The notes beneath the pieces are model-generated. The model saw only the letters and a list, made by a program, of their open reading frames with translations, was not told the DNA's origin and did no database searches. A DNA stretch of 64,000 bases from an uncultured Candidatus Saccharibacteria bacterium (GTDB taxonomy: Bacteria; Patescibacteriota; SICC01). Shown piece by piece: positions 8,784 to 50,793 of this stretch. Each line of letters opens with the position of its first letter. The stretch's first letter is position 1. Position numbers and translations under genes: made by a program. The stretch is taken from NCBI GenBank assembly GCA_964525455.1, contig CAZGHP010000001.1, positions 8,766 through 72,765 on the forward strand. The letters run 5' to 3'.

Positions 8784-9310
8784 CAGAAGGGAATGTCATC
8801 CAGCGACGGGTCTTCACCCGGCGCGTCCTTGTCTTTCTTGTCGCTCTTCTTGTCGTCCTTGCCGGACGGTGCGCCGGCCTGGGACGCTTCTGCCTCGGTC
8901 GGCTGCGCCGGCACTTGGCTGCCGCCACTGTTGGCTTGGCCAGCTGGGCCAGCCGAGCCGCCTTGGCCGCCGGCACCGCGGGAATCAAGCAGGATCATGT
9001 CATCGGCGACGATCTGGGTCTTGGAGCGCTTGGAACCGTCCTGTGCTTCCCAGGTGTCGGTCTGGAGCCGTCCTTCGAAATAGGCGCGACGGCCCTTGGC
9101 GAGGTACTGGTTGCAGATTTCCGCGAGCTTGCCCCACACCACGATGTTATGGAATTCGGCCTGCTCCTGGGTCTCGCCCTGCTGGTTCTTCCACTGCCGG
9201 TTGGTCGCGACGCCGAAGTTCGCCACTTGCTGCCCGTTCGGCGTGGTGCGCATTTCCGGATCGCGGGTCAGGTTCCCGATGATCATCGCCTTGTTGAGAT
9301 CTTTGGCCAT
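8783..9310 (-). CDS. ssb: single-stranded DNA-binding protein
   Basis: OB-fold core, Gly-rich tail and C-terminal acidic tip DDIPF. Confidence 0.92.
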   Translation of the reverse strand: MAKDLNKAMIIGNLTRDPEMRTTPNGQQVANFGVATNRQWKNQQGETQEQAEFHNIVVWGKLAEICNQYLAKGRRAYFEGRLQTDTWEAQDGSKRSKTQIVADDMILLDSRGAGGQGGSAGPAGQANSGGSQVPAQPTEAEASQAGAPSGKDDKKSDKKDKDAPGEDPSLDDIPF

Positions 9311-9334
9311 GGTGCCTCCGCCTAGTTAATCTTC

Positions 9335-9850
9335 TTAATCCTTAAGTTGCTCTTCGAGTGCGGCTTCGAGTTCCTTCTTCGACGCCTTCTTGGCCGGGGC
9401 CTTGGCGGCGGGCTGCTCTTCTTGCGTACCGGTCGTGGTATCCGCCGCCGGTTTCGCGGCCGGCGCGGCGGTCTTCCGCATGGCTTCCGGAACCTTCACC
9501 TTCGCTTCTTCCTTGCTCTCTTCCACTGCCGTGGCAACCTGGTGGATCTCGCCCGGGGTCGGTACTTCGTCGGTGCTGAGCAGGACGGTGCGGACGACCG
9601 CGTCCATCACGTTCAGTTGCCGGACGAACTCGTTGGCTTTCTCCGCCTCGATTTCGCAGTGCAGCAGCGTGTACCAGCCGTGGTCTTCCTTGCCGATCTC
9701 GTAGGCGAGCGGACGGCGGCCCAGGGAGTTCTGTTCCTTGGCCTTGCCGCCAAGCTCGAGCAGCGCGGCACCGACCGCGTCGGCCACCTTGGCGGCCTCC
9801 GGTTCGGTCTTATCGCCTGCGACGATGAAAAGTAGTTCGTATTCTCTCAT
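9335..9850 (-). CDS. rpsF: 30S ribosomal protein S6 with extended Ala/Lys-rich C-terminal tail
   Basis: MREYELLFIV start; conserved rpsF-ssb-rpsR order. Confidence 0.88.
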   Translation of the reverse strand: MREYELLFIVAGDKTEPEAAKVADAVGAALLELGGKAKEQNSLGRRPLAYEIGKEDHGWYTLLHCEIEAEKANEFVRQLNVMDAVVRTVLLSTDEVPTPGEIHQVATAVEESKEEAKVKVPEAMRKTAAPAAKPAADTTTGTQEEQPAAKAPAKKASKKELEAALEEQLKD

Positions 9851-9947
9851 GCTTCTCGTGGACTATCGTCCCGGTGCTCCGGGAGAAAAGCTCGTAGCTA
9901 AGAGTCTACGGTCGCCGGCTCGGAGCGTCAAGGAGCGAGTTATCAAT

Positions 9948-9976
9948 ATGGTAGCTTGTTTATGTTTGCTTGTCAA
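9948..9976 (-). promoter_or_regulatory. candidate sigma70-like promoter for the rpsF-ssb-rpsR operon (TTGACA, 17 nt spacer, TACCAT on the minus strand)
   Basis: Read on the minus strand ~90 nt upstream of the rpsF start. Confidence 0.35.
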
Positions 9977-9977
9977 T

Positions 9978-11087
9978 TCAAGCCCCGTGCCGGATGTGCA
10001 TGACGTCGCCATCGACGACGACGTAGTCCTTGCCTTCAGCCCGAAGCTTCCCGGTATCGCGGGCGGCGGCCTCGCTGCCCGCCGCGACGAAGTCGTCATA
10101 GCCGATTACCTCGGCGCGGATGAACTTGTCAGCGAAGTCGCCGTGGATGGTGCCGGCCGCCTGCGGCGCGGAACTGCCCTTGCGGATCGGCCAGGCGCGT
10201 ACCTCCTTGGGGCCGGCGGTGTAGAAGGTGATCAGCTCGAGCAGCTCGTATCCGGCGCGGATGAACCGGTTGAGGTTCGGCTCGGTGAGCCCGACCGAAC
10301 CGAGGAATTCCGCGCGCTCCTCCGGCGGCAACGCCCCGATCTCCGCCTCGATCTTCGCGGAGACGGCGACGACCCGGAAGCTCTGTTGCTCAGCCCAGCG
10401 CTCGGCTTCCTGGAAGAACGAGTTGGTACCGGGCTTGGCCACGTCCCCCTCGCCGACGTTCGCGACCACGAGCATGGGCTTCGCGGTGATGAACGGGAGC
10501 GGGCCGCCGGCCGCGAGCGCTTTCCGCTCATCGGCGGTGAACGTCACGGAGTGCGCCGGTTGCTCCGCATCGAACGCCGCGCCGATCCGCCGGAACAGTC
10601 CCAGTCGCTCCGCGGCGTCGGGACTGCCCTTCGCCTCCTTCTCCAGCGGGCCGAGGAGCTTGTCATACGTCTGCTGGTCAGCGAGGATCAGCTCGAGCAT
10701 GACGGTGCGGAGGTCGTCCACCGGATTGAGCCTGCCGGAGACGTGCGTGACCTGCGGGTCCTCGAAACAGCGGACCACGAGCGCGATCGCGCTGGTCTCG
10801 CGGATGTGGGCCAGGAACTTGTTGCCGAGCCCTTCGCCCTTGCTGGCCCCGCCGACGAGTCCCGCGATGTCCACGAACTTCACGGTGGCGGGGACGGTCC
10901 GTTCCGGCTTCACCAGCCCGGCGAGCTTCGTAAGCCGCGAGTCGGGGACGTCCACCACGCCCTCGTTCGGTTCGATCGTAGTGAACGGCCGGTTCGCGCT
11001 TTCGGCCTGCGCGCGCTCGAGCAGGGCATTGAAGAGCGTGGACTTGCCGACGTTCGGAAGCCCGACGATGCCGATGGAGAGGGACAT
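9978..11087 (-). CDS. ychF: ribosome-binding ATPase YchF
   Basis: GIVGLPNVGKSTLFNAL P-loop, TGS-like C-terminus, 369 aa. Confidence 0.93.
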   Translation of the reverse strand: MSLSIGIVGLPNVGKSTLFNALLERAQAESANRPFTTIEPNEGVVDVPDSRLTKLAGLVKPERTVPATVKFVDIAGLVGGASKGEGLGNKFLAHIRETSAIALVVRCFEDPQVTHVSGRLNPVDDLRTVMLELILADQQTYDKLLGPLEKEAKGSPDAAERLGLFRRIGAAFDAEQPAHSVTFTADERKALAAGGPLPFITAKPMLVVANVGEGDVAKPGTNSFFQEAERWAEQQSFRVVAVSAKIEAEIGALPPEERAEFLGSVGLTEPNLNRFIRAGYELLELITFYTAGPKEVRAWPIRKGSSAPQAAGTIHGDFADKFIRAEVIGYDDFVAAGSEAAARDTGKLRAEGKDYVVVDGDVMHIRHGA

Positions 11088-12815: not shown

Positions 12816-13355
12816 CTACGACGGCACCGGGATGAGCTCCTGACTTCCGTTCTCGAGCCCATCGAGTGGTATCCGTTTCGGTGGTCTCACGTACATCTTG
12901 CCGCGGTTCCGGAAGTTGAAGTCCACGCGCAGGGCTCTCGCGTCGAGAATCAAGTCGTACTTGCTCCGGAAGGACCATACCGCCCGTTTGCACCCCGAAC
13001 CCTGAAATGGATTCGCGTTGTTGAGCGGGAGCACTACCGGGGGTGGCACCGCCGGCACCCGGATCGCCGTGATCTGGATGTGGCACCGCTCGGCTTTCAG
13101 TGCGGGAGGCTCCTTGGTGCTGACCCGCAGCGATTTGCACGCGGCAGCCGCCTCCACCTGGAAAGCGGCACCGAAGTCGCGGGTCGGGACGAAGACCCGG
13201 CAATCGTACTCGCCGGGGGACTTGTCCGGACCGAGCTTGATGATGTGGACCTCCGGCTCGGAATCCTCATCGTGCTCGGGTGAGCTTGAGATGGCGAGCG
13301 CGAGTGCGGCCACTGCCATCAGTGCCAGTAGCAATAGCTTTCGAGCGAGCCGCAT
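12816..13355 (-). CDS. secreted protein, hypothetical
   Basis: Signal peptide, 179 aa, 4 Cys. Confidence 0.4.
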   Translation of the reverse strand: MRLARKLLLLALMAVAALALAISSSPEHDEDSEPEVHIIKLGPDKSPGEYDCRVFVPTRDFGAAFQVEAAAACKSLRVSTKEPPALKAERCHIQITAIRVPAVPPPVVLPLNNANPFQGSGCKRAVWSFRSKYDLILDARALRVDFNFRNRGKMYVRPPKRIPLDGLENGSQELIPVPS

Positions 13356-13519
13356 ACGTCCTCCTTAGTCGGGTACGGGATCGTAAGACAACGTGGTCGT
13401 GTAAAAGAACGACCGTTTATTATTGCGCCACTAAGCGGTAAATTGCAACGTCGCAGGATAGTAAAACGGGCCGGTCTTCATCGAATGGGTTCGAGGAAGG
13501 GTCCGGCCCGTAAGGTTCG

Positions 13520-13798
13520 TCATTCCCGCAGGTCATAGCCGTACCGACGGTAACGTCCTATCGCGCTTCCTATTGCCTCACCGAGTGCGAACAAGCTCAG
13601 GACGGAAATCGCGAGGCAGCCGACGACGATGAGGAAACCGAAGACGAGCAGGAATCCGGCGCCCGTCGGCGTCTCGGGGCAGATCCATTTGAGGATCAAG
13701 ACTGCCGGCACGCTTGCCAGCAGGGGTCCGAAGCAGTAGCAACCGTTCCGGAGCACCGCACGGTACTCCGGCACGGCGAACAGCGGTAGCGAGCGCAT
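13520..13798 (-). CDS. small membrane protein, hypothetical
   Basis: 92 aa with two TM segments. Confidence 0.3.
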   Translation of the reverse strand: MRSLPLFAVPEYRAVLRNGCYCFGPLLASVPAVLILKWICPETPTGAGFLLVFGFLIVVGCLAISVLSLFALGEAIGSAIGRYRRYGYDLRE

Positions 13799-13861
13799 GG
13801 GTGCTCCTTGGTCGGGAACAAGACGGAATGTGAAGCAGCGGGTTTATTGTACGCTGAATAC

Positions 13862-14194
13862 ATGGCTACTTTCGACGACTTCCAGAAGCTCGACATCCGC
13901 GTCGGCGAGATCGTTTCGGCGGAGGAATTCCCGGAAGCGAAGAGGCCCAGCTACAAGCTGACGATCGACTGCGGGCCGGAGCTCGGTACCAAACGGTCGT
14001 GCGCGCAGCTCACGGCGAACTACCCGCGGGAGTCGCTCGCGGGCAAGCGGGTGCTGGCGGTGGTGAACTTCCCGCCGCGGCAGATCGGCCCGGCGGTCTC
14101 GGAAGTGCTGACCCTCGGCGTGCCGGACGCGCAGGGCGAATGCGTCCTGCTCACCCCGGACGCGGACGTGCCGCTCGGCGGGAAGGTGTATTAG
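13862..14194 (+). CDS. tRNA-binding domain protein (CsaA/EMAP/Myf-type OB fold)
   Basis: FQKLDIRVGEI..AE.. and KLTIDCG..... VVNF motifs of the CsaA/YgjH tRNA-binding domain. Confidence 0.65.
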   Translation: MATFDDFQKLDIRVGEIVSAEEFPEAKRPSYKLTIDCGPELGTKRSCAQLTANYPRESLAGKRVLAVVNFPPRQIGPAVSEVLTLGVPDAQGECVLLTPDADVPLGGKVY

Positions 14195-14253
14195 GGTTTA
14201 TAGTTATCTGCTTGCGGCAGCAGGCAATCAGTAGCAAGCTGCAGATACGAAAC

Positions 14254-14280
14254 ACACCGCGCAGGCGGTGTTTTATTTAT
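14254..14280 (+). terminator. rho-independent terminator (ACACCGC-gcag-GCGGTGT followed by TTTATTTAT)
   Basis: Stem-loop plus T-rich run directly after the 13862-14194 gene. Confidence 0.55.
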
Positions 14281-14286
14281 GTGAAG

Positions 14287-15063
14287 ATGAAAGTCTTACT
14301 TTGGATACTGGTAATTGTGGGAGGCTTATCTTTCGTGGGTGCTGCTGCCGATGAGGATGATTCTTCATCAGGTAGTTCGGGCCACTCAGAATCGGAAGCA
14401 CTAGCTGGGACAGAAAGTTGTGCTTATCCAGAAATTAACGAAGAGAATATTCGTGCTGTCATTAATCAGAAACGCACCGCTGGCTCTGAGGTAACTCCTG
14501 ATCCTGCATTGGATTCCTATTCCGAGGAGCGTTCATATGAAAATTATGAAAGACAGTCTGCTGAGGATAGTGCTAAGTACGGAACCGGCGAAGGACAAGG
14601 TTACTACAGGTGGCGAGATCAATTCGGCACAGGTGTATTCACCGAAGAAGGTCGGAATAATAGCCAACCGATTGTTGCTCCGGCTTTCGCGGAATACCAA
14701 GAGCTTTCGGATACGACAGAATACTCTGATACTTGTGATTTAATCGCTGTTTGGGAAGAGGGAACATTCACCGATGCTGCGCTCAAATATGTAGGCATTG
14801 GTATCACTGATAAATATGTTGTGATTTCCCTAGCGAAACCGACCACGCCTGTCCCAGTTGTAAATGGTGGGCAAGCCTCAGGGAACACATACGATTCGTA
14901 TGAATATAGTGGCCACGATTATTCTTATGATGATTATGGGTATTCGGAGGATTTAGATTGTGCGGATGTCAGTTATGAAGAAGCACAACAATCAATAGGT
15001 CAGGGCGACCCCCATGGCTTTGACGGTGACGGTGATGGAATCGGTTGTGAATGGAATTATTGA
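14287..15063 (+). CDS. secreted acidic protein with C-terminal Excalibur (extracellular calcium-binding) domain
   Basis: Signal peptide, and a DxDxDGxxCE motif (DGDGDGIGCE) at the C-terminus. The gene is in a ~42% GC island. Confidence 0.6.
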   Translation: MKVLLWILVIVGGLSFVGAAADEDDSSSGSSGHSESEALAGTESCAYPEINEENIRAVINQKRTAGSEVTPDPALDSYSEERSYENYERQSAEDSAKYGTGEGQGYYRWRDQFGTGVFTEEGRNNSQPIVAPAFAEYQELSDTTEYSDTCDLIAVWEEGTFTDAALKYVGIGITDKYVVISLAKPTTPVPVVNGGQASGNTYDSYEYSGHDYSYDDYGYSEDLDCADVSYEEAQQSIGQGDPHGFDGDGDGIGCEWNY

Positions 15064-15106
15064 AATAACAATCGTTCCTAGTAGGACCATTAAAGAATGG
15101 ACTTAA

Positions 15107-15547
15107 ATGAGTAACACTTCGTACATCAATAGGTTTGTAATCACGGAGTCGCATTCATTGGTGGCAGTTGGATTATTGATTGCGATCCAATCATTTCTTT
15201 TTCAAGAGAATGTTCAGACCGTAGACCTAGGAATTCTTTACAGCATGAAGTTGGCTATCTGGTTCTTGCTAATAATTTTTCTTGGGGAGCTTACCTGGGA
15301 GTTGATCAAGAATGGTTACGAAAGTTCTGTTGGAAAGACAAAAGATTGGATTCCAGCGTCTATACTGCTCGTTCCATTTGGGTTTCTATTGTTGTCTTCA
15401 GTTGGAGTTCTAGTCGAACTAAGCGAGTGCATCAAATGCCCACCTTCTGTGTATGTTCCAGACGTATACTTCTTAGCATTCATTGCTCCAGTTATTTTCG
15501 TATTTATAAAGATTCTACGTTTTGTAAAAAAAATTGGGCGGTATTAA
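15107..15547 (+). CDS. polytopic membrane protein, hypothetical (low-GC island cargo)
   Basis: 146 aa, four hydrophobic helices, AT-rich codon usage unlike the flanks. Confidence 0.4.
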   Translation: MSNTSYINRFVITESHSLVAVGLLIAIQSFLFQENVQTVDLGILYSMKLAIWFLLIIFLGELTWELIKNGYESSVGKTKDWIPASILLVPFGFLLLSSVGVLVELSECIKCPPSVYVPDVYFLAFIAPVIFVFIKILRFVKKIGRY

Positions 15548-16524
15548 CCTTTCCCATGAAACTTCTTATGCACCTCCCGCAGCTGCGGGTTGGTGACGTG
15601 CGTGTAGACCTGGGTGGTCGTGATCGAGGCGTGGCCGAGCATCTGCTGGACGCTCCGGATGTCGGCGCCGTTCCGGAGCAGTCCCGTCGCGAACGAGTGC
15701 CGCAGCGTGTGCGGGGTCACGTCCTTCACCAGGCCGGCCGCCGCCGCGTACTTCTTGATGACCCGCTGCACCGACCGCGGCGTCAGCCGGAGGTCGGATC
15801 CGTCGGGCTCTTCCTTCACCTCGGCGGAGCGGGTCAGCAGCGGCTTCAGCGCCATCTGTGATCGTCCGCGTTTGTCCAAGTACGCCGCGAGGTGCTCCGT
15901 GGCCCGTACCGAGAGAAAGACGATCCGCGGCTTGTCGCCTTTGCCACGCACCATGAACTCGCCGCGTTCGGCGTTCACCTGGTCGGTGTCGAGGGAACAG
16001 AGCTCGGAGACGCGCAGCCCCGTGGAGTAGAAGAGCTCGAGGATCGCGCGGTCGCGGAGGCTCGTGAACGTGTCCTTGGTGCCGGCGGCTTCCAAGAGCC
16101 GCTCGACCTCCTCCGGCGTCAGGAACTCGACGCTCCGTCGTTCGGTCTTGCCGAGTTCGATCTTGTCGGCGGAAAGGGTCATCACGTCACGGCGGGCCAG
16201 GTACTTGAGCAGCGCCCGGATCGCGATCACGTGGTAGTTCTGGGTGAGCCGGCCGAGTTCGCCGCCCTGCGGGGTGGGCTGGCGGTTCAGCCAGATCCGG
16301 AAACTCCGGACCGCGTCGATCGTGATGTCCCGCGCCGTGGCGACGCCGTTCCGCGCTCCCCAGCGCATGAACCGGCCGAGGTAGTGTTCGTAATTGCGAA
16401 GCGTGAGCCGTGAAAGTTGCCGCTCCACCTCGCAGTATTCGAGAAATTGCGTGATGTATTCGGCGAGTTCGGTTTTGGGGCGGGGCGTCGCTGCCAGCTG
16501 CCCAGATGTCGCTTTTTTCGGCAT
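15544..16524 (-). CDS. xerD: tyrosine site-specific recombinase, XerC/XerD family
   Basis: C-terminal HTLRHSFATGLLRNGADIRSVQQMLGHASITTTQVYTHV catalytic motif. Its stop codon overlaps the stop of the island gene. Confidence 0.85.
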   Translation of the reverse strand: MPKKATSGQLAATPRPKTELAEYITQFLEYCEVERQLSRLTLRNYEHYLGRFMRWGARNGVATARDITIDAVRSFRIWLNRQPTPQGGELGRLTQNYHVIAIRALLKYLARRDVMTLSADKIELGKTERRSVEFLTPEEVERLLEAAGTKDTFTSLRDRAILELFYSTGLRVSELCSLDTDQVNAERGEFMVRGKGDKPRIVFLSVRATEHLAAYLDKRGRSQMALKPLLTRSAEVKEEPDGSDLRLTPRSVQRVIKKYAAAAGLVKDVTPHTLRHSFATGLLRNGADIRSVQQMLGHASITTTQVYTHVTNPQLREVHKKFHGKG

Positions 16525-16756
16525 GTTCTATATTGTGCGACATTTACGCGCGGAAAGCGAGCAGGGGTGTCCGGCAGTACGTACCGGCGTGCCCGGCCGG
16601 ACGCCGGCGGAAAAACAAAAAAGAGAGGATAAAAGTTACGGTAGGTAACGTTTGGTTCCTCTCTTTTCCCCGTCCGGAACATCTTGCGATGCGGCCGCTC
16701 AAGACTTGCAAAGCACGGGGTTGTGGGCCTGTAGGTGGGTCGTGAAAGCGTCTACG

Positions 16757-17356: not shown

Positions 17357-17914
17357 ATGAGCTTCCTCGACAACATCGACTACCAGCTGACCCGTGCCGC
17401 CACGGAGCTCGGCGGGCAGGAGCCGCTCCGTGACAGCGTCGTGGGCGCGACCGCCGACCTGCTGCCTTACTTCTTCACCGCTGCCGGGGTCTGGATATTC
17501 CTCAGCGGCCGGACCAAGCGCCAGAAGGAGAAGGGCCACGACGCGGTCTTCGCCGCGATCGGGGCCGTGCTGCTGGCGATCGGCACCCGCTGGCTGATCG
17601 GCGAGGTGTTCCACCGCGACCGGCCGTTCGTCACGCACCAGCTCCACCACCTCGATCTCGTGGATCCGCTCGAACAGTCGTTCCCAAGCGGCCACGCGAT
17701 GGTGCTCTTCGCGTTCGCCGGTACCATCTACTTCATCGGGAACCACCGGAAATGGGGCGTCGCGCTACTGACCGTCGCGGCGGTCGTGGCGGTCGCCCGG
17801 GTCGCCGCCGGCGTCCATTATCCGAGTGACGTGATCGCCGGCGCCCTGATCGGCCTCGCGCTTGCCAAACTCGTCTCTTGGCAGAGCCGCTGGCTGGCGA
17901 GGGAAATGCGCTAG
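17357..17914 (+). CDS. PAP2 family phosphatase (BcrC/PgpB-type, candidate undecaprenyl-diphosphate phosphatase)
   Basis: PAP2 motifs: KEVFHRDRP, SFPSGH and SRVAAGVHYPSDV. Confidence 0.8.
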   Translation: MSFLDNIDYQLTRAATELGGQEPLRDSVVGATADLLPYFFTAAGVWIFLSGRTKRQKEKGHDAVFAAIGAVLLAIGTRWLIGEVFHRDRPFVTHQLHHLDLVDPLEQSFPSGHAMVLFAFAGTIYFIGNHRKWGVALLTVAAVVAVARVAAGVHYPSDVIAGALIGLALAKLVSWQSRWLAREMR

Positions 17915-18527: not shown

Positions 18528-18642
18528 GGCGGCGATCCATCATCCCTTCTTCGATTCTTACGATTCGAATGAAACCGGGTGATGGGTGGCCGTCTTTTTT
18601 ATGTGGGCGCGCCGCCGTGGCATACGGTACGCTGGAATCCGT

Positions 18643-19428
18643 ATGGACTATTTGTACGCTGCGGTCCTCGGCATCATCCAAGGACTCACCGAGTTCCTGC
18701 CGGTTTCCTCGACCGGCCACCTGGCCCTGGCGCAGGACTACCTCAACCTCAACCAGGCGGTGTTCGGGCTGCAGTTCGACGCCGCGATCCAGCTCGGCAC
18801 CACCGTCGCGGTGATCTGGTTCTTCCGGAAGGACTTCTGGAACCTCATCCGTCACTGGCGGCGCCCGGAAGAGAAGCGGCTGCTGCTCTCCCTGACCGTC
18901 GCCACGCTTCCCGCCCTGGTGATCGGTGCCGGCCTTGAGAAACAGATTGAAGGACCTTTCCGCGATCCCGCGGTGATCGTGTCGGCCCTGATCATCGGTG
19001 CGTTCGTCTTCTTCGCGGTCGAACGGGTCGCTAGGCAGCGCCGCGGCGTCGGCCAGGCCACCTGGAAGGACGCCCTGGCGATCGGATTCGCCCAGGCGTT
19101 GGCGCTGGTGCCGGGCGTCTCCCGCTCCGGCGCGACGATCTCGGCCGGGATGTTGCTTGGCCTGAAGCGTGAAGCCGCGGCCCGGTTCGCCTTCCTGCTG
19201 TCCGTGCCGATCATCACCGCGGCCGGAGGGAAGAAGCTCGTCGAGATTATCCAGGAGCCGGGCTCCACGGACCGGCTGGATGTCACGCTGGTGGGCCTGG
19301 TCGTCTCCGGGATCGTGGGATACGCCACCATCAAATACCTGCTCAAATTCCTGGCGCATCACCGGCTCGACGTGTTCGCCTGGTACCGGCTGGCGCTCGC
19401 CGCCGTGATCATCCTGACGCTGCTGTAA
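18643..19428 (+). CDS. uppP: undecaprenyl-diphosphatase UppP (BacA)
   Basis: GLTEFLPVSSTGHL and PGVSRSGATI motifs. Confidence 0.92.
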   Translation: MDYLYAAVLGIIQGLTEFLPVSSTGHLALAQDYLNLNQAVFGLQFDAAIQLGTTVAVIWFFRKDFWNLIRHWRRPEEKRLLLSLTVATLPALVIGAGLEKQIEGPFRDPAVIVSALIIGAFVFFAVERVARQRRGVGQATWKDALAIGFAQALALVPGVSRSGATISAGMLLGLKREAAARFAFLLSVPIITAAGGKKLVEIIQEPGSTDRLDVTLVGLVVSGIVGYATIKYLLKFLAHHRLDVFAWYRLALAAVIILTLL

Positions 19429-48030: not shown

Positions 48031-50793
48031 CTACGACCCGGGAGTCGGCGAGGGAGACCCGGACGTGCCGGCTGACGATGTGACGTTCAAGGGAATGAAC
48101 AACGCATGGTCGGGGAACCACGCTACGCCTTCCTGGACGAGCGAGAAATATTCCTGGTGGCTGCCGACCTGCGCGGCCGTCAGGGTAAAGCGGAAGAGCG
48201 CGACCTCGCCCGGCTTGATCTCGTCGGCCGGAACCATCGCCAGGGTGGCGAGGTCCGTCACCTTGCCGTCGATGCCGCTGGCACGGTTGGTGGCCGACCA
48301 CGGGTCGCTGCCGGCAGTGGTACCGAACGCGGAGCCGCGGTCCTGCGGACGGGCCGTCCCTAGCTTGACGGTGTTCGCACCCGTGACCGGCCAGGCGTAA
48401 CGCCCGGTGTTGCGGACGGCGACCCGTACCTCGACCTGGTCGTCCAGTGACAACTGTCCGGGATCCCGGGAGTAGCGCTTGTCCAGGACCTCGTAATCAT
48501 AGTTCGCCGAGGTGATCGTCACCGGCAGGTAGATGCCGAGGTCCGGCAACCAGGTCCTGCCCTCCTGCACGAGATTGAAGTATTCTTTGTAGCTTCCCGG
48601 ATTGAGTGACGGGTCGACCTTGAGCGGCACCGTGAACTGCGCGACTTCGCCCTGCTTGATCTCATCCGCGGGCTGGACTTGGTCGCTCGCACCCACCTTG
48701 CCGCCGATCTGTGCGGCACGGTTCGCACTGAGCCAGCCGGTGCCATCCTCGAGCACCGCGAAGCCGGAGGGCCGGTCTTGCGGACGGAACGTCCCGAGCC
48801 GGACCGCGTTGTTGCCGTTTACCGGCCACGCGGTCTGTCCGAGGTTCTTCACCCGGAGGACTGCCTCGATCACGTCGCCGTACTTGGCGTCGGACGGGTC
48901 TTCGGAGTAATGCTGCTCGACCACGGCATAGTCGTATGCCGGCGATTCCACTTTCACGGGTACGTACATGCCGTAATCCTCGGGGAACCAGCCTTCGCCT
49001 TCCGCGACCGGCCGGAAATACTCCTGATAGCCTCCGTCCGGCTTGGTCTTGCTCTCGACCGCGAAGTCGAAACGGGCGACTTGGCCGGGGTCCACTGCAT
49101 CTTCGCCCGGCGCATCCGCGACGTCGTCGATCGTGCTGGCGCGATTCGGCGCGACCCAGTCGTCTCCCCGGAACGCCGAACTGCGGTCACGGGCGCGGTC
49201 GGTGCCGAGCCGGACGTTGCCCCCGACCTGCCACGGCTTTTGGCCGGTGTTCCGGAGGTACAGTCGTGCCGTGGCATCACCACCTTCGAAAGCGACCGGA
49301 TCCGGGTTCTCCTGCTTGACCCATGCGTAATGGTAGCCGCCCGGCAGTACCCGTAGCGAGAAGTACATTCCGAGGTCGTTCAACCAGCGGTCGCCCTCGA
49401 GTACCGGCCGGAAGTATTCCTTGTAAGTGCCGGGCTTGCTCGGTGCCTTGATCGTGAAGGAGAAGACCGCGATTTCGCCCGGATCGATCTTCGGGTCGGC
49501 GAGGACTTGGTTACTGGATGGGTCGAGCCGCCCGTTCAGCCCGGACGGGCGGCTGGCACTGATCCAGCTCTCGCCGCTCGGTACCCCGTCACGCGACGTG
49601 GTCGCGAAACCGCTCCGCCGGTCGCGTGCCCGGTCGGTAGCAAGTCGGAGCGGGGATGACCCGCCGCTGTGCCACGCGAAGTCGCCAGTATTCTTGATGT
49701 AAGCTTTCAGGTTGATTTTCCTGCCGCCCGCGAGGTAATCATCCTGGTCGGTGGTCGCTCGGGAGGTCGGCGACAGTTCGAGGTGGGCGCTCTGGCCGTG
49801 CCACTGCGCCCGATACGTGTAGCCCTGCACCTTGATGCCGGCGTAGATTCCGATATCGTGCATCCAGCCGACGCCCTCCACCACCGGCGTGAAGTACTCG
49901 CGGTGGCTTCCCGGGCCGACGTGGCTGTTGTTGAACCGTGCCCGGAAGACTCCAATGTGCCCCGGAGGTGTGTCGGATTGCAGCGCGATCCGGTTGGGGG
50001 AATGCCAGCCATGTCCGCCCATGCCCTTGGAGAACGTGCTGTTCCGGTCGCGCGGCCGTGAGGTGCCGAGCCGGACGGCATTCTCGCCGTTGGCCTGCCA
50101 GGTCACCTGCCCGGTGTTCTTCAGGCGGAACTCGACATAATGTTCTTCCGTCTTCGCCCGGGTGCCGCCGCCACTCTGGCCGACGTACTGGTAACTGTAG
50201 TAGTTCTGCCGGGACGTAATGTAGCGGCTGGGGTGCGCGTAGCTTCCCAGTTTACTCGCCGGCTCATAACCATGGATCGCCGACCAGTAGGTACCGGTGG
50301 CTGCCCCGTACGCACCAAGCCGGACCGCGAAGTGGAGGTGGTCTCCCCAGCGTCCGTTCTCCCGGGTATTGCTCGGCCCGATCGCGCCAATGTGCTGCCC
50401 CTTGCTGACCCGCTGGCCGGCACTGACGCGGCGGTTATTGCTCAGGTGTCCGTACAGGCTGGTGGCCTTCGAGCCGTCCGGATTGGTGTGCTGGATCATG
50501 ATCAAGTTGCCCCATCGCCAGGAATCCGGCGTCAGGGCGGAGTAGACCACGGTACCGTCGGCGATCGCATGGACCGGCGTGCCGGCGCTGCAGCCGATGT
50601 CCTGGCCGGCGTGGTAGCCCCAGCCGGAGACGTATTGGCCGAAATTATAGCCGGAAAGCTGGTACGGACTGCAGGGGTACTGGTAGCTGGTGGCAGCAGC
50701 CTCGGCGCGTGCGGGGCTGCCGACGATACCGACCAGAACGGCGGCGACCGCAGTGATTCCAATCAAAAGCCTGGCTGTGTAGCTGCTGTGCAT
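48031..50793 (-). CDS. paralogous large secreted protein: M23 peptidase domain plus 5 copies of the same ~110-120-aa repeat
   Basis: Signal peptide; M23 YGHLSNNRRV...HLHFAV. Five repeats share VRLGT.RPRDR.S.F and G.Y.EYF.PV.EG..W blocks. Its N-terminus is paralogous to 45679-48012. Confidence 0.75.
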   Translation of the reverse strand: MHSSYTARLLIGITAVAAVLVGIVGSPARAEAAATSYQYPCSPYQLSGYNFGQYVSGWGYHAGQDIGCSAGTPVHAIADGTVVYSALTPDSWRWGNLIMIQHTNPDGSKATSLYGHLSNNRRVSAGQRVSKGQHIGAIGPSNTRENGRWGDHLHFAVRLGAYGAATGTYWSAIHGYEPASKLGSYAHPSRYITSRQNYYSYQYVGQSGGGTRAKTEEHYVEFRLKNTGQVTWQANGENAVRLGTSRPRDRNSTFSKGMGGHGWHSPNRIALQSDTPPGHIGVFRARFNNSHVGPGSHREYFTPVVEGVGWMHDIGIYAGIKVQGYTYRAQWHGQSAHLELSPTSRATTDQDDYLAGGRKINLKAYIKNTGDFAWHSGGSSPLRLATDRARDRRSGFATTSRDGVPSGESWISASRPSGLNGRLDPSSNQVLADPKIDPGEIAVFSFTIKAPSKPGTYKEYFRPVLEGDRWLNDLGMYFSLRVLPGGYHYAWVKQENPDPVAFEGGDATARLYLRNTGQKPWQVGGNVRLGTDRARDRSSAFRGDDWVAPNRASTIDDVADAPGEDAVDPGQVARFDFAVESKTKPDGGYQEYFRPVAEGEGWFPEDYGMYVPVKVESPAYDYAVVEQHYSEDPSDAKYGDVIEAVLRVKNLGQTAWPVNGNNAVRLGTFRPQDRPSGFAVLEDGTGWLSANRAAQIGGKVGASDQVQPADEIKQGEVAQFTVPLKVDPSLNPGSYKEYFNLVQEGRTWLPDLGIYLPVTITSANYDYEVLDKRYSRDPGQLSLDDQVEVRVAVRNTGRYAWPVTGANTVKLGTARPQDRGSAFGTTAGSDPWSATNRASGIDGKVTDLATLAMVPADEIKPGEVALFRFTLTAAQVGSHQEYFSLVQEGVAWFPDHALFIPLNVTSSAGTSGSPSPTPGS

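Follow-up and report, generated by a model that had tools for sequence, protein, structure and literature searches.

Hotspots of horizontal gene transfer are accessory slots between conserved core genes, refilled by homologous recombination in their flanks. Integrative mobile elements exploiting Xer (IMEX), among them CTXphi, VGJphi and TLCphi, enter the chromosome at dif, have dif-like flanks and carry phage or replication functions (PMC5357621), and the pdif/dif modules of Acinetobacter plasmids and chromosomes are units of one or two genes that lack a recombinase, are bracketed by paired 28-bp pdif sites and are thought to be moved by XerCD (PMC12907356, PMC11705084). The XerS and XerH systems keep dif beside xer (PMC5357621), whereas the XerA-type dif sites of Thermococcales are not adjacent to xerA (PMC2958812). 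Here we describe a locus in a 64,000-nt stretch of a Candidatus Saccharibacteria genome (GCA_964525455.1, contig CAZGHP010000001.1, positions 8,766-72,765 of the forward strand; hereafter the window, whose positions serve as coordinates), where a GC-poor islet of two genes, ISL1 and ISL2, fills the interval between the stop codons of a tRNA-binding-domain (tRNA_bind) gene and a convergent gene for a Xer-family tyrosine recombinase, xer. An earlier note on this DNA had read the islet as an integrated element that exploits Xer. Our analysis suggests instead a recent foreign import in a hypervariable slot that is refilled by homologous recombination between related strains, a reading that we consider likely; the islet is an ordinary small horizontally acquired one, and the Xer-hijacking story does not hold.

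The islet DNA is foreign in composition. Over ~1.35 kb its GC content is 43.2%, against a mean of 63.6% (standard deviation 4.2%) in all other 300-bp windows. Across 14200-15550 such windows fall from 0.59-0.69 to 0.39-0.47, with 0.55-0.70 in the flanks and a return to 0.67 afterwards, making the islet the sole run longer than 1 kb below 50% GC in the 64 kb. The GC content at third codon positions (GC3) is 0.35 in ISL1 and 0.41 in ISL2 and 0.75-0.90 in every neighbouring gene, with the other lineage-specific ORFans near the islet keeping 0.75-0.80. The contrast that the earlier note drew between an AT-rich stretch of this length and flanks of ~65% GC is therefore real, and the k-mer scan that it proposed agrees: the tetranucleotide profile of the islet correlates with that of the whole window at r=-0.29 (median 0.91) and, once base composition is removed, at 0.355 against a median of 0.73, still an outlier. 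Both islet junctions recur with 100% identity in L001, an independent assembly from Logan (SRR6868922), which makes a chimera of assembly unlikely. GC content falls from 14195 onwards, directly 3' of the tRNA_bind stop; a terminator-like hairpin upstream of ISL1 therefore sits within GC-poor DNA, and the island does not begin right after a strong terminator, as had been proposed.

Comparison with relatives revealed that the islet is one of many occupants of the same position. The gene order DedA-UppP-PAP2-Xer-(variable)-YchF is common to seven genomes whose Xer proteins are 70-87% identical; ISL1 and ISL2 are missing from all seven. Relatives that are both close and GC-rich (Xer 81-87% identical) form two clades, A and B, and the window represents a third lineage. 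A sample of 11 contigs or genomes with Xer at 81-100% identity yielded at least seven unrelated slot contents, mostly GC-poor (Table 1), with a cargo GC3 of 0.33-0.63 versus 0.86-0.90 in xer, and homology between genomes stops exactly at the xer and tRNA_bind stop codons. Both flanks are native and conserved: the tRNA_bind gene is 90-92% identical in L002 and L005, and the synteny of xer is maintained within the close clade. The P-loop genes that fill the slot in L002/L004 and in L005 are only 42% identical, with Xer at 94%. In L164, L002, L003 and L005 the 500 bp 3' of xer lie below the first GC percentile of the locus, and in the 64-kb window they are the minimum. A metagenome scan for further close relatives returned none, the best match being 71%. 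The slot is thus a genuine recurrent landing place, or replacement hotspot, for GC-poor DNA. What the earlier note had said of a foreign cassette lodged at the 3' end of xer stands, in that the islet abuts xer exactly and cargo is lineage-specific, and the genome comparison that it called for yielded close relatives without the insert, namely L164 and the seven syntenic genomes.

The strain L164, which comes from another sample, matches the window at 98.5-99.2% identity along more than 10 kb, and its slot holds an unrelated 521-bp segment. Between the two lies a divergent tract of ~2.4 kb (Table 1), bordered by complete identity at 12860-13400 (540 bp) and 15781-16080 (300 bp). Within it, identity drops to 90-92% at 13400-13520, 85-97% in the tRNA_bind gene and 87-98% at 15541-15780. 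The tRNA_bind genes differ at 21 of 333 nt (6.3%), 16 of these changes being synonymous; the last 80 codons of xer (240 nt) differ at 9 positions (3.75%), 8 of them synonymous, against 6 differences (0.8%) in the other 735 nt of the gene. Overall, the slot flanks are 4-8% divergent, mostly at synonymous sites, and the sequence just outside the tract 0-0.8%. This mostly synonymous block of divergence around the slot therefore indicates that one of the two strains exchanged DNA with a more distant lineage by homologous recombination. The tract also includes a hypervariable gene, h92 (13520-13798, minus strand), a 92-aa membrane open reading frame (ORF) with 35-73% nucleotide identity to its L164 counterpart and a protein 57-68% identical in L002 and L005.

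Exchange of small genes extends beyond the slot. Relative to the window, L164 carries ~236 bp of additional DNA near 18.15 kb (a 49-aa ORF) and 375 bp at 20.18 kb (a 111-aa ORF), and beyond YchF, left of window position 9978, it continues into unrelated DNA with a polysaccharide-lyase gene. The density of single-nucleotide differences is raised beside all three breakpoints (left of 9978, ~18.15 kb and ~20.18 kb), and the turnover of small genes by recombination is thus a general feature of the genome, not one confined to xer. The conserved block upstream of xer is itself mosaic: the window UppP (18586-19428) is 89% identical to clade B (L003, L008) and 63% to clade A (L002, L005), while PAP2 (17357-17914) is 82-85% identical to clade A and 57-62% to clade B, which suggests inter-lineage recombination or paralogue replacement.

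These observations fit a scheme in which some low-GC donor, whichever it was, would have supplied the islet DNA, and in which the slot between the convergent conserved xer and tRNA_bind genes would be refilled by allelic replacement. DNA from a related lineage would recombine through the two flanks, the h92/tRNA_bind region and the last ~240 nt of xer, bringing the intervening cargo with it; homology would end exactly at both stops, and the occupant would differ from lineage to lineage, because the conserved flanks recombine and carry whatever lies between them. Between clades, identity is 89-96% in the last 240 nt of xer and only 79-85% in the xer bodies, which makes the xer tail a natural homology anchor, and the proximity of the islet to xer is best explained by that role. 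First entry into a donor lineage would probably have been by illegitimate or microhomology-assisted insertion, with no promoter or gene disrupted.

Several observations weigh against this scheme or fall outside it. Homologous recombination does not explain the original entry of GC-poor DNA into the slot, and the recombinant strain, whether the window or L164, cannot be polarised. The variable interval between xer and YchF measures 2.6-6 kb, and in five or six lineages its GC-poorest DNA lies right beside xer, which hints at a positional preference beyond neutral turnover. No promoter was detected for ISL1, which starts 7 nt past the terminator-like hairpin. A rare-codon, weakly dif-like xer terminus is left unexplained, as is a 63-nt leader that the islet has in common with L003.

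This leader (Table 1) is 84% identical to L003 9534-9473 (E 2.5e-11) and is the only part of the islet found in another lineage. Among 163 loci, its exact sub-motifs occur only in the window (with its duplicate assembly L001) and L003, and they were not found in IMG/VR viral contigs. In both lineages it stands directly upstream of the first slot gene, and the two cargo proteins that follow are unrelated. Its hairpin has a 7-pair stem with 5 G-C pairs and a 4-nt loop, 7 nt 5' of the ISL1 start codon; the stem is identical in L003, so that there is no covariation to test. Folding of the leader was unremarkable (z = -1.6), and an Rfam scan of the window returned 5 tRNAs and no other structured RNA. 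The shared element could be a 5' untranslated region or attenuator, a terminator or a cassette boundary.

Among the alternatives, the one that survives best, and is nevertheless unlikely, is a one-off illegitimate insertion into the lineage's own slot, for example after natural transformation, without the involvement of related strains. The islet carries no mobility genes, its 5' terminator-like element resembles part of a randomly cut fragment, and the 6-nt direct repeat GTATTA at its two edges (14187-14192 and 15541-15546) is what microhomology might leave; that repeat, however, is largely forced because both flanking genes end in Tyr-stop. A simple insertion would also not cause the native flanks to diverge by 4-6%, mostly synonymously, from a ~99% identical strain, and the leader and xer-end junction shared with L003 imply that slot ends circulate among lineages.

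Capture by the recombinase itself is improbable. Under this proposal a cryptic Xer site would overlie the stop or last codons of xer, and the host Xer would integrate circular DNA bearing a compatible site. At least seven unrelated cargoes abut the xer stop or its last codon, and the window, L003 and L008 have the junction GGTTA[A/G]/TAC in common despite different cargo; the cargo ORFs of L008 and the window, although unrelated, each finish with RY-stop. The end of xer is also unusual in its codons (Table 1): the last 8 include both CAT codons of the gene, one TTT out of three and one AAA out of six, TTT accounting for 9% of core-gene Phe codons, and the rare AT-ending series CAT, TTT, CAT, AAA, GGT is retained in all close relatives. 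Synonymous conservation is raised over the last ~34 xer codons (22/32 versus ~0.38 elsewhere). The 28-mer at 15576-15549, GAGGTGCATAAGAAGTTTCATGGGAAAG, shows a weak 11-6-11 dif-like pattern, GAGGTGCATAA-GAAGTT-TCATGGGAAAG, with a CATAA-N6-TCATG core, and matches the E. coli dif arms at 15/22 positions. This match was noticed post hoc, however, and of 128,000 positions two score this high, the second likewise in the window; in other Patescibacteria, high-GC members included, the 28-mer is free to vary at synonymous sites.

Searches for the sites that such a mechanism would use were negative. No direct repeat or dif-like palindrome was found at the islet edges, and repeat searches with a scan for palindromes with 11-bp arms over 13.7-17.3 kb gave chance-level matches only. 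The xer-end sequence has no copy at the distal islet edge or in the spacer, as a second, hybrid site would require; the lack of any dif-like site or duplicated junction is the outcome that the earlier note had itself named as refuting its reading. The canonical dif core has 0 matches in the 64-kb window, and scans for difSL and difH half-sites reached at most 14/21 matches, none at a slot junction. ATAA-N6-TTAT cores are not enriched within 600 bp of xer at 161 loci (11/68 matches), and the xer flanks of ~145-150 Patescibacteria loci share no motif, yielding A/T-rich low-complexity 9-mers only. A Cortez-style search after PMC2958812 (11-bp imperfect inverted repeats with 4-10-bp spacers, at least 80% conserved in relatives) over ~8 kb around xer in the clade recovered only sites inside conserved coding sequence and none in non-coding DNA. 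Cumulative GC skew, which the earlier note had suggested following, rises through the window with no turn at 15.5 kb. A dif embedded in the xer 3' end throughout the phylum was considered separately and rejected, as third-codon positions there vary freely across 80 Patescibacteria loci, high-GC ones included.

The geometry of the slot likewise speaks against site-specific integration. The cargoes of L164, L002 and L005 take up the entire interval between the two stops but for 11 nt or fewer, leaving no room for a second 28-bp site, and distal boundaries vary by lineage. The exchange with L164 reaches 240 nt into xer and ~800 nt past the slot, as homologous and not site-specific recombination would. 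The islet DNA and proteins have no match in 50,697 phage records, its DNA has none in 72,556 plasmid records (searched in DNA mode only), no relative was found in IMG/VR viral contigs, and matches of its proteins to PHROG had E values of 0.015 or higher; the phage or plasmid homologues that would be expected of an element exploiting Xer thus did not appear in these collections. The earlier note had reasoned from single-recombinase systems, and it is right that dif lies beside xer in XerS and XerH systems (PMC5357621), a point in favour of capture; this Xer, by contrast, is XerD/XerA-like, and Thermococcales, with XerA, have their dif sites away from the gene (PMC2958812).

A composite of the two mechanisms, in which the xer 3' terminus doubles as a cryptic Xer site, Xer captures promoter-less cassettes and homologous recombination spreads the resulting alleles, appears marginally less probable again than capture alone. 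If it were true, ultra-small bacteria would possess, at the end of xer, a platform for gene capture that resembles integrons or IMEX. Least probable of all is that the genes are native with a selected AT-richness or an artefact of assembly or binning: small exported or membrane ORFans are common in the genome and chimeras can arise in a metagenome-assembled source, but GC3, largely free of protein constraint, sets ISL1 and ISL2 apart from the other ORFans, a strain 99% identical lacks the islet, both junctions are the same to the base in two assemblies and fall at stop codons with ORFs intact, and a leader homologue occupies the same position in L003.

Table 1. Features of the slot and its flanks in the window, and slot contents of relatives.
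Feature	Position	Strand	Description	GC3
Divergent tract versus L164 (~2.4 kb)	13400..15780	.	spans h92, tRNA_bind gene, slot and last ~240 nt of xer	
tRNA-binding-domain gene (128 aa)	13808..14194	+	Pfam tRNA_bind E 9.7e-13	0.86
GC-poor islet	14195..15543	+	fills the whole inter-stop slot, tRNA_bind gene to xer	
63-nt leader element	14219..14281	+	AGCAGGCAATCAGTAGCAA, then hairpin ACACCGCGCnnGCGGTGT and T-run	
Intrinsic-terminator-like hairpin and T-run	14254..14280 (hairpin 14254-14271)	+	ACACCGC GCAG GCGGTGT; terminator scan	
ISL1	14287..15063	+	258 aa, pI 4.05, acidic, predicted exported	0.35
ISL2	15107..15547	+	146-aa membrane ORFan, four hydrophobic segments	0.41
xer, XerC/D/A-family tyrosine recombinase (326 aa)	15544..16524	-	Phage_integrase (PF00589) 1.8e-44, Phage_int_SAM_1 (PF02899) 4.2e-11	
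AT-rich rare-codon cluster, xer C-terminus	15549..15576	-	CAT AAG AAG TTT CAT GGG AAA GGT	
L002, L004 slot			P-loop kinase-like gene, start coupled to xer stop (ATGA)	0.56
L005 slot			second P-loop version	0.61
L003 slot			166-aa exported acidic protein	0.40
L008, L165 slot			convergent HNH + RecQ-like helicase, overlaps xer stop	0.63
L167 slot			198-aa anchored protein + second gene	0.33, 0.41
L006 slot			12-nt remnant of P-loop gene start	n/a
L164 slot			167-aa ORFan in 521-bp segment, 52% GC	0.59

We next consider the two islet genes. The first was described in the earlier note as a secreted acidic protein with a calcium-binding Excalibur motif, and most of that description fits. ISL1 has 49 D+E versus 13 K+R and a single N-terminal hydrophobic segment at residues 1-23, and its C-terminal end, DGDGDGIGCEWNY, contains the intact motif DGDGDGIGCE; the Excalibur match in Pfam, covering profile positions 3-36 of 36, remained below the cut-off (16.9 bits against 22; E 0.008). 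Database matches to the ISL1 C-terminus (E 3e-10 to 1e-5) carry PF05901. A phmmer search of the central 174 aa against 1.84 billion representatives recovered only P0025 (E 6.9e-10) and P0026 (E 1.8e-8), both of which carry Pfam CAP domains (E 8e-13 and 4e-11); the ISL1 core is 33% identical to them and aligns through their core without their SSPTHN segment. ISL1 itself has no Pfam CAP match even at E<=10, a word-indexed search with its N-terminal region matched only itself, and its single-sequence AlphaFold model was unusable (predicted local distance difference test score, 35). The exported proteins that occupy the L003 and L167 slots showed no homology to ISL1. We read ISL1 as a putative signal or anchor segment followed by a divergent CAP/SCP-like domain, a linker rich in Tyr and Asp and, at the C-terminus, an Excalibur motif, a layout that would fit an exported, probably calcium-binding surface protein.

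The contigs of both ISL1-core relatives, L162 and L163, have contexts that look mobile or defensive: P0026 adjoins a gene with a SocA_Panacea domain on a 34%-GC contig, and P0025 lies ~1.6 kb from a large serine recombinase. A defence role for the islet was considered and rejected, as PADLOC gave no match for ISL1 or ISL2.

The four transmembrane segments that had been proposed for the second protein were recovered as four hydrophobic segments in ISL2. A search of 5.8 billion proteins with ISL2 returned no homologue at E<=0.1, Pfam, PHROG, PADLOC and NCBIfam gave no match, and an open frame of its length arose in 1 of 2000 shuffles. ISL2 is a possible membrane partner of ISL1. The reported overlap between its stop and that of the convergent xer is exact, the TTAA at 15544-15547 being common to the ISL2 stop (15545-15547) and the xer stop (15544-15546).

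The recombinase has the motifs GLRVSEL, GKGDKPR, HTLRHSFAT, LGHAS and TQVYTHV, with the catalytic residues R-K-H-R-H-Y. None of the NCBIfam cut-offs for XerD (251.5 bits, cut-off 329.6), XerC (248.9, cut-off 335.15) or XerA (212.7, cut-off 220) was reached, and scores were lower for the XerS model (130.3 bits, cut-off 267) and the integron integrase model (132 bits, cut-off 265). Against solved structures, Xer aligned best with archaeal XerA 4a8e (E 7.6e-40), end to end, and E. coli XerD 1a0p (E 4.7e-38), and far less well with XerH (E 3.6e-15). By these profile and structure matches it is a bona fide member of the XerC/XerD/XerA-type family, without orthologue assignment; no second Xer paralogue was found in the window. 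Its homologues at 50-87% identity lie in 220 stretches of GTDB genomes, essentially all from Patescibacteria, so that the window derives from an unusually GC-rich member of that group.

At the other end of the gene, the start region (16506-16545, minus strand; ATGTCGCACAATA...ATGCCGAAAAAAGCGACAT) is conserved in every close relative, from upstream of the start codon to beyond it, and the codon is bracketed by a 7-bp inverted repeat, ATGTCGC/GCGACAT. This arrangement could represent a promoter together with an autoregulatory operator, or else a hairpin in the mRNA.

Among the other slot occupants, the P-loop genes (L002 9026-9556, L004 3779-end, L005 8987-9490) give weak matches of AAA_18/AAA_33 type and are coupled to xer in translation through an ATGA overlap, and the Xer and YchF that flank them are 93-94% identical between L002 and L005. 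The gene at 9002-10570 (minus strand) in L008 and L165 encodes a 522-aa protein in which an HNH endonuclease is fused to a RecQ-like DEAD/Helicase_C helicase, with strong matches to the PADLOC models DpdF and PsyrT (E as low as 1.5e-96). A role in defence is possible, but helicase-family membership could by itself account for the match. Elsewhere in the window, the strongest tetranucleotide outlier after normalisation for composition is 48031-50793 (minus strand), which encodes a 920-aa exported protein with an N-terminal motif that by eye resembles that of M23/LytM peptidases, followed by at least five internal repeats of ~110 aa.

Collectively, our results document a sharply defined, stop-to-stop gene-replacement slot in a reduced genome of the candidate phyla radiation (CPR), with strain-level evidence that its occupants are swapped by homologous recombination, in a clade whose high GC content makes newly arrived DNA unusually visible. 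If ISL1 and ISL2 act at the cell surface, the slot could vary the surface repertoire of these episymbiont-like bacteria.

With respect to described families, the cargo has partial counterparts. Among bacterial CAP/SCP (YkwD-like) proteins, two with CAP domains are homologous to the core of ISL1, and its C-terminus has the DxDxDGxxCE motif of exported Excalibur proteins; ISL1 itself does not match the Pfam CAP model, and we found no described counterpart for the combination of these parts with a Tyr/Asp-rich linker and a four-segment membrane ORFan downstream.

Known recombinase-based systems resemble the locus in part. As in integrons, a Xer-related tyrosine recombinase stands beside an exchangeable gene slot; integron cassettes, however, bear attC and enter attI upstream of intI, whereas here cargo lies at the 3' end of xer, and no repeated attC-like structured element is common to the cargoes except the leader in two lineages. 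Among XerS/difSL, XerH/difH and archaeal XerA/dif (PMC5357621, PMC2958812), this Xer is nearest in sequence to XerA and XerD, scores outside both XerS and XerH, and has no difSL- or difH-like site near its gene. Like an IMEX, the islet lacks an integrase of its own and sits beside something related to Xer, but neither dif-like flanks nor phage or replication functions were found for it. It also matches the Acinetobacter modules in being a unit of one or two genes without a recombinase, and differs from them in that no pair of pdif sites brackets it.

The closest parallel is with hotspots of horizontal gene transfer. Here too a slot at a fixed position among core genes holds unrelated cargo even between ~99% identical strains, its flanks fall in a divergent tract, and the cargo is devoid of mobility genes. 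This slot differs from such hotspots in being very small (0.5-1.5 kb, one or two genes), in lying in a reduced CPR genome and in having as its exact limits the stop codons of two convergent genes, xer being one.

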